This document shows, piece by piece, positions 2,011 through 28,053 of a stretch of DNA of 64,000 bases. The first letter of the stretch is position 1. Every line of letters begins with the position of its first letter. The notes below the pieces were generated by a model that worked only from the letters and a program-made list of their open reading frames with translations, did not search any database and was not told the origin of the DNA. The translations under genes were made by a program, and so were the position numbers. The stretch is taken from contig CAXWPH010000015.1 in assembly GCA_963666055.2 (NCBI GenBank), forward strand, positions 160,001-224,000, read 5' to 3'. The stretch is from Acidobacteriota bacterium (GTDB taxonomy: Bacteria; Acidobacteriota; UBA890; WLXD01).

Positions 2011-2289
2011 CTAGCAGGCCGTGGTGAAAGTGTGGTGGGTCTGGTTACGGCGAGTTGGGGCCAGATGCAAGGCGGCCTGACGCAGGCGATGCCCTAGCCA
2101 TCGTCGAGGAAGGCCAACGCCGCAAATGGCCCCGAATCGCCGTAACCCTTCGGGCGACAGGGGGTTGCGCGCGTATGCTGCGTCGTTCCTCGTCAACGAT
2201 GGGGTAACCATCGCCTCCTCCTCTCTCCTTGCCTCCACTTCGCAAGACCCTGTCGCCAGACCCACCACACTTTCACCACGGCCTGCTAG
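2011..2289. mobile_element. MITE-like element A with 30-bp perfect TIR, CTAG at both ends
   Basis: ctag-caggccgtggtgaaagtgtggtgggtctgg ... ccagacccaccacactttcaccacggcctg-ctag; no transposase. Confidence 0.85.
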
Positions 2290-3785
2290 TAGCGATACTC
2301 GTCGGTTTTGTACGGACCGTCAATGTCCACACCCAAGTAGTCGGCCTGCTCTTGGGTGAGGCGCGTGAGCTCGACACTCAGGTGCTCCAAGTGCAACCGG
2401 GCGACTTCCTCATCGAGCTTCTTGGGCAGCACGTACACCTGTCTGCCGAAGCCCTCGTCGTTCTTCCACAACGCCATCTGCGCCAACACCTGGTTGGTGA
2501 ACGACGCCGACATCACGAAGCTCGGATGGCCGGTGGCGCAGCCGAGGTTCATCAGGCGGCCTTCGGCGAGCACGAGCACGCTATGGCCGTCGGCAAAGAT
2601 CCACTCGTCATACTGCGGCTTGACGTTGACCTTCTCGATGCCGGGTAGGCGAGCCAGGCCGGCCATGTCGATCTCGTTGTCGAAGTGGCCGATGTTGCAG
2701 ACGATGGCCTTGTCCTTCATCGACGCCATGTGGTCGGCGGTGATGATGTCGAAGTTGCCGGTGGAGGTAACGAAGATGTCAGCAGAATCGACGACGCTCT
2801 CGAGCGTTCGTACCTCGTAGCCCTCCATCGCCGCCTGCAGTGCGCAGATCGGATCGATCTCGGTGATGATCACCCGGGCCCCCTGGCCGCGCAGCGCCTG
2901 TGCACATCCCTTGCCAACTTCGCCGAACCCGCACACCACGGCCAGCTTGCCGCCGATCATGACGTCGGTGGCGCGGTTGAGTCCATCCAGCACCGAATGG
3001 CGGCAGCCGTAGATGTTGTCGAACTTCGACTTGGTAACCGAGTCGTTGACGTTCATCGCCGGCACCAGCAAGGTGCCAGCCTTCTCCATCTGCCGAAGCC
3101 GGTTGACGCCCGTGGTGGTCTCTTCGGAGACACCGCGCAGCGCCGCCGCGATGGTGTGCCAGCGCTGCGGATCGCGCCCCAGATCGCTACGAAGCAGGTC
3201 CAGGATCACGCCCCACTCCTCGGAGTCAGAGCCGGGGTCGAAGTCCGGTACCGCACCGGCCTCCTCGAACTCGAATCCCTTGTGAATCACCAGCGTGGCA
3301 TCGCCACCGTCATCGACAATCAGCTCGGGTCCAGAGCCATCGGGCCAGGTCAAGGCCTCGGAGGTACACCACCAGTACTCCTCCAAGGTCTCCCCTTTCC
3401 AGGCGTACACGGGAATCCCACGCGGGTCGTCGATGGTGCCGCCGGTCTCGGGACGCCCCACCGCGACGGCGGCCGCAGCCGGATCCTGGGTGGAAAAAAT
3501 GTTGCATGACACCCAGCGCAGATCGGCGCCGAGATCGGCCAGTGTCTCGATCAGTACGGCGGTCTGCACCGTCATGTGGAGACTGCCCATGATCTTGGCG
3601 CCGGCCAGCGGCTGGTCGGCGCTATAGCGGCGACGAACTTCCATCAACCCTGGCATCTCGTGCTCCGCCAGGGTGATCTCCTTGCGGCCGAGCTCGGCCA
3701 GCGTCAGATCGGCAACCTTGAAGGGCTCACGGTTGATCTGGCGCGCGGCGTCGAAGGGGTGCAGCTGTTCGGCAACGGTTTCCAT
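2286..3785 (-). CDS. ahcY: Adenosylhomocysteinase
   Basis: [62 protein letters not shown]. Confidence 0.98.
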
Positions 3786-3796
3786 TCTAATTGCTC

Positions 3797-4768
3797 CTAG
3801 TCAGGGCTCGCCGCCCGGCGTGCCGAGGCGACGAAGATCGCTGGTCCCGACGCGTCGGGGTCCGGCGGTAGCTCGTAGTGGGTGATCGAATTCAATCCGG
3901 CGTCGCGCAGCCAGCCAGCGATTTGCTGGCGCGAGAATCCCAACCAAGCGTGCCCCATGTCGTGCTGGTAGGCGCGCCGGTCGTGCGGCGTCATGTCGGC
4001 GATCAGCAGTCGCCCGTCCGGACGCAGCGTCCGCGCCGCCTCCGCGAGCGCTGCCTCGGGCTGCACGACGTAGTGGAGCACCAGGAACATGATGGCCACG
4101 TCGAGCTCGCCGTCGGCCAGCGGCAGGGACTCCAGCCGACCCTCCCGCACGTCGACGTTGCCGAGCTCGCGCAGGCGATCGCGAGCCGCCCGCAGCATCT
4201 CGCGTGAGCTATCGACCGCCACCACACGGCGGACGAACGGAGCTAACGACTCGGCAATGCGTCCGGTCCCGCAGCCCAGGTCGCCGGCCACCCAGTTCGG
4301 ATCGGCAAGGCCAAGTAACGCCTGCAAATCGATGCGCTCGCCGAACATGTCGCGCCGCAGACGATCCCAATCGTCGGCGGCGGAGGCAAAGAACTCCTGG
4401 GAGCGGCTGCGCCGAACGGTAAGCACGGCGCGCACCCGCGAAGCGTCTTGGCGGGCGGCAGGCAGGCACAACGAGCGCTCCCGCACCAGCGCCCACAACT
4501 CGGCTGCTTCGTGGTCCAGGCTGCGGGCCAACATTCGGTAGCGTCGGCTGGTGCCGTCTGGCAGGACCACCAGCCATCCGTCCTCGGCCAGCACTTTCAA
4601 GTGTCGGCTTACCGTAGATTGCGGCATCTGCAACACGGTGCAGAGCTCTCCGACGGTGAGCTCCTGGCCCTCGAGCACCAGCAGCAGGCGCGTGCGGGTG
4701 GTGTCGGCGAGGTTGGCCAAGAAGTCGAAGATGCGGGGCTCTTCGATCGCGCTCATTAATCCGTTCAT
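3797..4768 (-). CDS. sahR: ArsR-HTH / class I SAM methyltransferase fusion regulator (SahR-like)
   Basis: ArsR HTH ([12 protein letters not shown]) plus DLGCGTG motif; 11 bp upstream of ahcY. Start at 4768 or 4756. Confidence 0.85.
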
Positions 4769-4803
4769 GCGGATAGACTGATTAATTGAACCGCGACTGT
4801 CAA
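4759..4803 (-). promoter_or_regulatory. Sigma70-type promoter with overlapping palindromic operator for sahR-ahcY
   Basis: Minus strand TTGACA (4803-4798)-17 bp-CAGTCT (4780-4775); inverted repeat ATCCG-N6-CGGAT at 4759-4774. Confidence 0.65.
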
Positions 4804-26253: not shown

Positions 26254-26301
26254 TCCGGGAACGGACGCCTCCGACAACCCGAACCGCCTGAGAACAACCG
26301 C

Positions 26302-27720
26302 ATGATTCACTTTCCGGTCCTACGTTGGGGCGAGCCATACGAGAGCCTCGAGACCGAGGAGGTCGTTCACTTCGCCACCGGTGAGCCCATCGCCAAGGTG
26401 AGCCAGGCGAGCCAGGGGATGGTTGCACGCGACATGCGCAAGGCGCAGCGGGCGCGCAACGTGCTGCGGGACGTGGCGCCATCTGACCTGCTGGCGATGA
26501 CCCAGAAGGCTGGCGAGCTGTTCATGACCGCCGATCTACCACTCGGCGACGGCTCCCAGTCGCCCGCCGACTTCGTGCGTCAGCAGTCGGCCACCACCGG
26601 GCTCTCCGAGCACATGTGCCGGATGAATATGGAAAAGCTCCGGTTCGTGCTCGAGCACATGGACGAGATCCTCGAGTCGCTCACTCGCCATCTCGATCTC
26701 AACATCCTGGCGCGCGGCTTCGGCGAGGAGGGCGGGGTCATGCGCAGTTACCAATCGACTACCAACGCCCTCGGCATGGTGCTGCCGTCGAACTCGCCCG
26801 GTGTACACACCTTGTGGCTGCCGGTCATCCCCTTGCAGATCGGCCTGGTGCTGAAGCCCGGTCCGCAGGAGCCCTGGACACCCTGGCGTATGTCGCAGGC
26901 GTTCTTCGAGGCCGGCGTGCCGCGTCAAGCGATCGCTGTCTACCCGGGGGGGCCCGACGTGGGCGCCGGGGTGCTCAACAACACCGAGCGCAGCTTGATC
27001 TTCGGCGGCCTGCCGACTGTCGAGCAGTACCGTGGCCACCCCGGCGTTCAGGTGCACGGTCCTGGGTTCAGCAAGATCCTCTTCGGTGACGATGTAGTCG
27101 ACAACTGGGAGCAACACCTCGATCTCATGGTCGACTCGGTGCTGGTGAACGCCGGCCGCTCATGCATCAACTGTTCGGGCATCTGGGCGTCGCGGCATAC
27201 GCGTGAGATTGCGGCGGCCCTGGCCGGACGCCTGGCCACTGTCGAGGCGCTCCCGCCGGACGACGACGCCGCCCAGTTGGCGGCGTTTACTGTTCCGGGC
27301 CAGGCCAAGGCGATCTCGGAGGACATCGACGCCAATCTCGACTCCGAAGGCGTTGAGGATGTCACCGCGTCGTATCGTGACGCCGGTCGGCTAGTGGAGC
27401 AGGCGCGCTGCGACTACCTACTGCCGACGGTGGTCCATTGCGCCGCTGCGGGGCAGCCAATTGCAGGCAAGGAGTACATGTTCCCCTTCGTGACCGTCGT
27501 CGAGTGCCCACAAGACGAGATGATCGAGGCTATCGGCGACACCCTGGTGGCCACCGCCATCACCGACGATGCTGGATTTCGGCGAAATCTACTGGACGCC
27601 CCGAACATCGACCGGCTGAACTTCGGCGCCATCCCGACGGTGCAGCTCAATTGGTTGCAGCCCCACGAGGGCAACATCGTCGATTTTCTATACCGCGCAA
27701 GAGCTTTTCAGTCGGCCTGA
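26302..27720 (+). CDS. Atypical ALDH-fold protein (GriD-like acyl reductase)
   Basis: LPSNSPGV, LKPGPQEP, NAGRSCINCS catalytic Cys, EYMFPF; HGPGFSK replaces ELGGK. Confidence 0.8.
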   Translation: MIHFPVLRWGEPYESLETEEVVHFATGEPIAKVSQASQGMVARDMRKAQRARNVLRDVAPSDLLAMTQKAGELFMTADLPLGDGSQSPADFVRQQSATTGLSEHMCRMNMEKLRFVLEHMDEILESLTRHLDLNILARGFGEEGGVMRSYQSTTNALGMVLPSNSPGVHTLWLPVIPLQIGLVLKPGPQEPWTPWRMSQAFFEAGVPRQAIAVYPGGPDVGAGVLNNTERSLIFGGLPTVEQYRGHPGVQVHGPGFSKILFGDDVVDNWEQHLDLMVDSVLVNAGRSCINCSGIWASRHTREIAAALAGRLATVEALPPDDDAAQLAAFTVPGQAKAISEDIDANLDSEGVEDVTASYRDAGRLVEQARCDYLLPTVVHCAAAGQPIAGKEYMFPFVTVVECPQDEMIEAIGDTLVATAITDDAGFRRNLLDAPNIDRLNFGAIPTVQLNWLQPHEGNIVDFLYRARAFQSA

Positions 27721-27754
27721 GCTGCAATAAGACCGATCTCTTCGCTGGCCAGCG

Positions 27755-27779
27755 CCACACTTCCACCACGGTCTGCTAG
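27755..27779 (+). repeat. Solo end of MITE family A
   Basis: ccacacttccaccacggtctgctag. Confidence 0.8.
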
Positions 27780-28053
27780 TGGCCTGTAACAGATGATCGT
27801 TGCAACTCGTGGTGGCGAGTTGGGTGCGGATGCCAGGCGCGACGACGAGACGATGTTTGCCCATCGTGGAGGAGGAGCAACGCCGCAGACGGGCCGATTT
27901 CGCCGCCATCCTGCGGACAGATGGGCCGTTGCGGGCGATCTCGGCGTTGCGTCTCGTCGACGATGCCCACTGCATCGCCTTCCTCGCCGCGCCTTGATCT
28001 CACCCGCAAATCCCATCTGCGATATGCAACGATCATCTGTTACAGGCCACTAG
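27776..28053. mobile_element. MITE-like element B with 25-bp perfect TIR, CTAG at both ends
   Basis: ctag-tggcctgtaacagatgatcgttgca ... tgcaacgatcatctgttacaggcca-ctag; interior homologous to element A. Confidence 0.85.

Follow-up and report, generated by a model that had tools for sequence, protein, structure and literature searches.

The 64,000-nt stretch of Acidobacteriota DNA analysed here (hereafter the window, part of genome G000) contains two short elements, A at 2011..2289 and B at 27776..28053, each bounded by CTAG, that carry different ends around homologous interiors. Element A is 279 nt long, both CTAG sites included, and has perfect terminal inverted repeats (TIRs) of 34 nt, CTAG included, at 2011..2044 (plus strand) and 2256..2289 (minus strand); element B is 278 nt long and has perfect TIRs of 29 nt of the type found on IS630 insertion sequences (ISs). 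The TIRs of A and B are 35% identical, with 342 of 1000 shuffles scoring equally high; the interiors are 65% identical, with an alignment score of 184 against a best of 77 among 500 shuffles. The alignment of A to B spans the whole length and is nearly gapless. These tests and the sequence agree with an earlier note on this DNA, which had placed two elements of near-equal length, with different perfect TIRs and homologous interiors, at these positions.

A and B share one layout: inside each end lies a unit, and a CCC-NNN-GGG junction separates the two units, which are inverted relative to each other. What is conserved is this unit, a rod about 105 nt long whose two copies stand head to head. 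In A, the left unit (A_L, 2043..2147, plus strand, z −7.65) forms a "closed" rod hairpin and the right unit (A_R, 2153..2257, minus strand, z −3.14) an "open" one, and the sequence between them forms a CCC-TTC-GGG junction hairpin (2146..2154); in B, the left unit (B_L, 27809..27909, plus strand, z −2.71) is of the open type and the right unit (B_R, 27917..28020, minus strand, z −5.84) of the closed type. The earlier note had described two opposed copies of a module of about 60 nt in each element. The four modules and their four loop sequences are exactly as it wrote them, and the opposed arrangement stands; what is conserved, however, is the longer rod, with its covarying basal stem of about 25 bp.

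The basal stem differs in sequence from family to family. Above it lies an internal loop in which AAGG is opposite ACGC, with one G-C pair inside (in A_L, 2069-2072 opposite 2117-2120), followed by a stem of 5 bp, a loop in which tandem G.A pairs flank a single pair that covaries, and, at the apex, the CGATG/CATCG stem; in A_L the apical loop itself contains a CTAG target (2094-2097). The GGCG/CGCC outer stem proposed in the earlier note is thus not the conserved pairing. The junction motif is present in 89 of 123 units.

Covariation supports this fold. Among 16 variants from G000, 84% of cells are paired and both sides of the pair have changed in 21 of 30 pairs, a result that none of 500 shuffles equalled and that compares with 34–47% pairing in slid controls. 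In a larger, model-fitted alignment of 121 units from 78 loci, 91.6% of cells are paired and both sides have changed in 28 of 30 pairs, the corresponding shuffle test being inflated by the kinship of the sequences. Non-canonical columns covary as well (C.A 74 vs A.G 41, mutual information 0.73 bits). The best-conserved positions are the unpaired and non-canonical ones, lengths are fixed, and the loop positions stay conserved in 53 units that the scan pattern had not picked. A search of Rfam gave no match in the window at the gathering score, nothing significant on A or B at E-values up to 10, and none on units in 20 loci; likenesses of the core to the symmetric loop of SRP RNA and to the AA/GC mismatch of REP were considered, and Rfam gave no SRP match. 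The covariation above both kinds of control, together with ends from different transposase families, supports the earlier proposal that non-autonomous elements with exchanged termini carry a single-stranded structure under selection.

In G000 there are 83 full copies of A and 9 of B and, by unit type, 6 of a family C and 2 of a family D. A profile of the module gives 280 matches in this genome and none in the reversed genome. Copies are polymorphic among close genomes; the relatives examined include G002, G003, G004, G005 and G011, and individual loci are given L-numbers. At the CTAG that forms the stop of ahcY, the gene for AdoHcyase (2286..3785, minus strand), which takes its TAG from the right TIR of A, G000 carries A, G002 and G003 carry a B-type element, and the site is empty in G004 and G005. 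Conversely, 3 of 40 element loci from G002 and G004 have an empty G000 counterpart with a single 4-mer, most loci lacking an orthologous flank pair. CTAG is present on both sides in 76 of 95 elements, and the variant sites mostly alter the outer base, which favours a duplication of TA. A four-base duplication, which fits the CTAG sites equally well, was rejected on the evidence of these variants. A and B are short and non-coding, have TIRs, many scattered copies and a target duplication, and are matched by ISs with like ends. They are MITEs, transposable elements of miniature size with inverted repeats, inserted at TA within CTAG.

Several remnants of the same families lie in the window. A lone A-type TIR (27753..27779, minus strand) has its CTAG occupied by B. 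A second lone A TIR (37504..37530, minus strand) stands where the orthologous G002 site carries an A element, lost in G000 by deletion across a 7-nt microhomology. Such lone ends are deletion relics. At 31559..31665, where the earlier note had placed a fifth, degenerate module near 31560-31605, lies a truncated, internally inverted relic of A (nhmmer E 9e-5, not detected by the covariance model), consisting of an inverted A_R tip and the right TIR, and its CTAG forms the stop of an M20 peptidase gene. Next to A itself, 1986..2006 is a collapsed mini-palindrome of an IS630-type end, left over from a previous insertion into this site; a relic of this kind also occurs elsewhere. Among the single-unit copies of family A in G000, of about 170 nt, most lack the left unit and retain the right, open one, with differing break points. 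The left end of A is present in four to five tandem copies of 83 nt at G000:C11:160030-160420, each stopping at the CTAG of A's own apical loop.

The ends of these MITEs, compared over the 20 nt after TAG, match the ends of ISs of several transposase families. Specifically, the A end matches the left end of the IS1182-like element L413 in G011 at 17 of 20 positions, these being the first 17 in succession; L413 encodes a 472-aa DUF772/DDE protein whose best NCBIfam match is IS1182 (158.6 bits, against a cut-off of 270). The B end matches the IS630 element L038 at 15 of 20 positions and L001, in G000, at 14 of 20, and the D end matches L038 at 18 of 20; the L001 protein, related to these IS630 matches, scores 282 bits on NF033545. 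The C end matches an IS5 element of the NF033581 type (L402) at 17 of 20 positions, the L080 protein scoring 260 bits on NF033581, and the end of a relative (L219) matches L002, an IS5 with 8 copies in G000, at 17 of 20. The earlier note had proposed to look for transposases with the same TIRs; autonomous ISs with matching ends are found for A (L413) and for B (L038 and L001). In each case the similarity runs about as far as the TIR of the IS and then ceases. The pattern indicates that the ends are borrowed from IS1182-like, IS630 and two IS5 groups, as judged by sequence comparison. Elsewhere in the window, an isolated IS5-type end at 41725-41745 belongs to the NF033581 group and has no adjoining transposase, that family not being found in G000. 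In another genome, G007, 83 matches to an IS5 transposase of the NF033581 type and many IS630 copies occur next to these MITEs, which makes it well suited to the study of end capture.

Ends vary while the position of the core relative to the insertion site is kept. Among 123 distinct units, the end is readable in 104, giving 52 different 8-nt starts, and the TA lies 57–59 nt from the core motif in 83 of 116 units, regardless of the end. A tree of 37 interiors requires 15 changes of end type, where the minimum is 9, and its starred branches require at least 3 changes for the A end type. The core unit is absent from the autonomous ISs tested, namely those of 12 loci and L001 and L002. A route for such exchange is suggested by the shared CTAG target: ISs of the donor families sit directly on the terminal CTAGs of MITEs at L001, L038 and L420, so that ISs and MITEs could come to lie end to end and new ends could be captured. 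L021 combines families C and D in a chimera whose crossover lies in the apical stem.

The core is widespread. Of 121 genomes of the phylum, 35 have matches to a covariance model, R1, and a strict pattern scan found at least 114 stretches. Among the stretches listed, most are from Acidobacteriota, and the others include Gemmatimonadota, Myxococcota, Bradymonadales, Spirochaetaceae, Chlamydiota, Akkermansiaceae, Bacteroidota and Planctomycetota. Covariance matching also finds the core in five other phyla, where five genomes have 12–39 matches each, all of them metagenome-assembled and thus open to binning errors. Matches occur in 15 of 61 genomes from the phylum to which the Myxococcota genome belongs; in that of the Bacteroidota genome, only the centre genome has any, one of 41, which indicates that spread there is patchy. 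Many Myxococcota elements are single rods of 160–171 nt, and the spacing from TA to motif, read by eye, is kept in single-unit rods outside the Acidobacteriota. Six single-unit elements of the Myxococcota phylum (L439, L441, L442, L445, L453 and L454) have ends that are imperfect, mismatch-rich stems and not clean IS-type TIRs; in two of them the TA is still 58 nt from the motif, counted by eye. The interiors of L235, in an Akkermansiaceae assembly, and L286, in a Gemmatimonadota assembly, are near-identical, reflecting either a recent transfer between phyla or a binning error. The strict pattern has no match in viral contigs, where a loose pattern gave 120 chance-like matches, of which 21 pair at the base and none is a convincing unit; a BLAST search of plasmids with two relatives returned nothing, or short chance pieces.

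The earlier note could assign the elements to no named family. Comparison with known repeats reveals relatives of the unit, although not of the whole element. Using a Correia end motif, we retrieved 59 loci from viral contigs, 22 of them with a partner end, which we take to be Correia elements on the basis of that end sequence and the published lengths. These 22 Correia-type loci measure 97–103 or 151–153 nt, in agreement with the 107- and 155-bp forms of the Correia, or NEMIS, elements of Neisseria described in PMC2229807. Like A and B, they are TA-flanked, non-coding rods with the same AAGG/ACGC loop, and a second model, R2, aligns 6 of them over its full length (E 8e-4 to 4e-3 in 29 kb), in a test that is partly circular since the retrieval pattern contained 6 nt of the core motif. 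A Correia-type element comprises one unit, its basal stem serves as the TIR, and its motif lies 24–27 nt from the end (24–25 nt from the TAG); A and B, in contrast, have two units within additional, IS-derived ends of about 30 nt that are unrelated in sequence to Correia-type ends, with the motif at 57–59 nt. In the ERIC (IRU, RU-1) elements of enterobacteria, AAGG and AACGC are invariant in 5 aligned full-length Escherichia coli copies, drawn from 14 matches. ERIC copies are three of the four top matches of R2 in 56 kb, two in the expected register; singly these matches are not significant (E 0.1, 1.9 and 4.1) and cover the basal half only, and R1 gives no match to ERIC. ERIC differs from A and B in its longer apical part and its single unit. 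The TIR and the single-unit size of 105–155 nt that characterise the Correia and ERIC families are not those of A and B, which have other ends and two units in 278–279 nt. A and B are not members of either family; one of their units corresponds to roughly one whole Correia-type element, and from sequence A and B look like two such units set in new ends.

Other known systems resemble A and B in part. RUP of Streptococcus pneumoniae, which accompanies IS630-Spn1, is a MITE with IS630-like ends and a TA target (PMC2229807); compared by description alone, it resembles family B in both respects, and it differs from A and B in that no core common to several transposase families is described for it. 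In plants, the Stowaway element Ost35 and mPing contain internal enhancers, and internal MITE sequence can increase transposition (PMC9921582); the maize Mu elements exchange TIRs, and their TIRs and interiors can be recombined (PMC10401008). The plant cases involve exchange within one superfamily and no conserved single-stranded fold, whereas families A to D span IS5/IS1182-like and IS630 transposases. REPINs lie between genes and consist of two hairpins in inverted orientation, with a terminal tetranucleotide. A and B differ in having long IS-type TIRs and a target duplication, with no Y1/RAYT in G000; membership of the REPIN/RAYT system was rejected in view of that duplication and of the absence of PF01797 from G000. 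A SINE-like retro-element was rejected likewise, there being no PF00078 in G000 and the truncation at 37504 being a microhomology deletion. In the literature covered, from which subscription journals were largely excluded, we found no account of one core across several MITE families, and the catalogue of bacterial MITEs in PMC11602168 may contain these elements as sequences. The core is genuine and widespread, and it was found neither in Rfam nor in that literature.

We propose that these MITEs consist of a conserved folded core and exchangeable ends that match ISs, and that the core acts as a single-stranded aid to transposition, allowing an element to borrow whichever transposase fits its ends; we put this reading, which draws on sequence evidence, at about an even chance. 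In 83 copies of A, rare variants occur at a similar density in the core (1.21 per site) and in the basal stems (0.98–1.23), which indicates that resident copies are not being preserved and that the core is instead kept in the lineages that spread. This neutral decay, together with the fixed spacing and the absence of the core from autonomous ISs, points to an aid to transposition. Movement would be by cut-and-paste, carried out by the transposase whose ends the element shares; new ends would be captured when ISs, sharing the CTAG target, land on MITE termini, and deletion and recombination within the core would then join the new end to the old interior. The core would fold in a read-through transcript or in an exposed DNA strand and bind a putative host factor, offsetting the handicap of using a transposase in trans, and the opposed pair would provide each strand with one working core.

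RNA is slightly favoured over single-stranded DNA as the form of the core. Of 123 units, 112 fold better in the sense strand when modelled as RNA and 71 when modelled as DNA. The central loop is compatible with an RNA UNCG and a DNA GNA hairpin alike and so does not discriminate between the two. Contigs assembled from 4 RNA libraries (3 studies) contain family sequence, in small shares and with strand and ends lacking, which is not proof of transcription. No bias of replication strand relative to GC skew was seen, in a test of low power.

Several results weigh against the proposal of a transposition aid. In the flanks examined, no partner gene recurs near the elements beyond ordinary host genes. 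Across families, G.T exceeds A.C by only 50 to 30, and within family A the corresponding test of G.U against A.C is not significant (p 1.0). The score of L413 falls short of the IS1182 cut-off, a search of 26 genomes of the order found an A-matching transposase in 1 of them and none in G000 (95.7% complete), and A nonetheless has an identical pair of copies at unrelated sites in that genome. Only 8 of 34 branches of the interior tree are starred, and end types are still clustered on it (0 of 200 shuffles as low). The earlier note had suggested that the opposed layout presents the module in either direction of transcription; each strand does hold one sense copy, but single-unit elements exist, and in 83 A copies genes enter by the A_R end alone 32 times and by the A_L end alone 9 times (p 4e-4), a bias that is not significant in other genomes (12 vs 7, p 0.36), the counts resting on crude gene calls.

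That orientation bias would be expected if the core instead lowered the cost of insertion at the level of RNA. Elements would sit on stop codons, the rod in the read-through transcript would set mRNA processing or stability as a substrate of RNase III or RNase E, hosts would tolerate the insertion, and movement would need the ends alone. Consistent with this, 44 of 162 full ends have a terminal TAG that serves as a stop codon, compared with 951 of 10782 CTAG sites, the sense strand folds better as RNA, and PMC2229807 reports effects of RNase III and RNase E for Correia and ERIC and orientation-dependent effects on mRNA for ERIC. Yet the core is under no purifying selection in resident copies, a role in mRNA does not require a fixed distance to the terminal TA, and the bias is not significant beyond G000; we consider this explanation doubtful. 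The fixed spacing also fits a second rival, in which the core is the real replicator, bound by some enzyme that cuts or copies at a TA a set distance away, with the IS-like ends as passengers acquired from neighbours. The spacing holds over the 52 end starts, A has moved recently with no resident matching transposase found, and Correia-type and ERIC elements have a fixed spacing of their own, 24–27 nt. Against it, the similarity of the ends to IS ends extends for roughly one IS TIR and then breaks down, and no linked gene was found. Moreover, of 14 core-bearing genomes including G000, 8 yielded no reverse transcriptase and 11 no Y1/RAYT, and IS630 is above the cut-off in G000 and in 3 of the 13 others; RAYT, reverse transcriptase and a resident IS630 were each rejected as a universal mover, being not found in many core-bearing genomes. 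We regard a replicator of this kind as unlikely.

A third account dispenses with functional selection: all families would descend from one MITE, with templated quasi-palindrome repair keeping the stems paired and recombination swapping the ends. The neutral decay of resident copies and the frequency of palindrome collapse and hairpin deletion fit such a history. Templated repair, however, would erase internal loops rather than retain them, and here conservation is highest at unpaired and non-canonical positions, lengths do not vary, non-canonical pairs covary, and the motif persists in AT-rich Correia-type elements, which makes this account very improbable.

Returning to the transposition aid, a broader version holds that one ancient core, shared with Correia and ERIC, is a portable module for hijacking transposases, which would recruit, a set distance in from the element's end, a general host factor or some enzyme, and would have crossed phyla by swapping short adaptor ends among unrelated DDE families. 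We find this version plausible but somewhat short of evenly balanced. The folded domain of Alu, which captures L1 in trans, offers an analogy. A hijacking role of this kind may also account for the Correia and ERIC repeats; PMC2229807 treats the way in which these move as an open question. The interior is the lasting part of these MITEs and the ends the replaceable part, in contrast to the view, expressed in PMC11602168, that bacterial MITE interiors are deletion leftovers of a parent IS. If the core does raise mobilisation in trans, this would account for the large numbers in which MITEs occur and bring several classic repeats under one heading, and a structured motif not yet catalogued, with a putative binding partner, would be added to those known. 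Matched pairs exist, each comprising a real IS1182-like or IS630 transposase and a MITE wearing its ends, with a defined loop motif and spacing.

The window contains further repeats. A tandem 16-nt repeat with at least 4 perfect copies lies at 18968-19047, and a 62-nt direct repeat (97% identity), unrelated to A or B, lies at 39370-39431 and 57439-57500. A cluster of pieces that read as IS3-like occupies 47400-52300 and 59643-59693; it includes an inverted pair of 796 nt (83%), and 48768 and 59643 have a perfect end of 51 nt in common. Between 8800 and 21400, several genes encode repeated motifs that we take to be beta-propeller-like, of the PQQ type.

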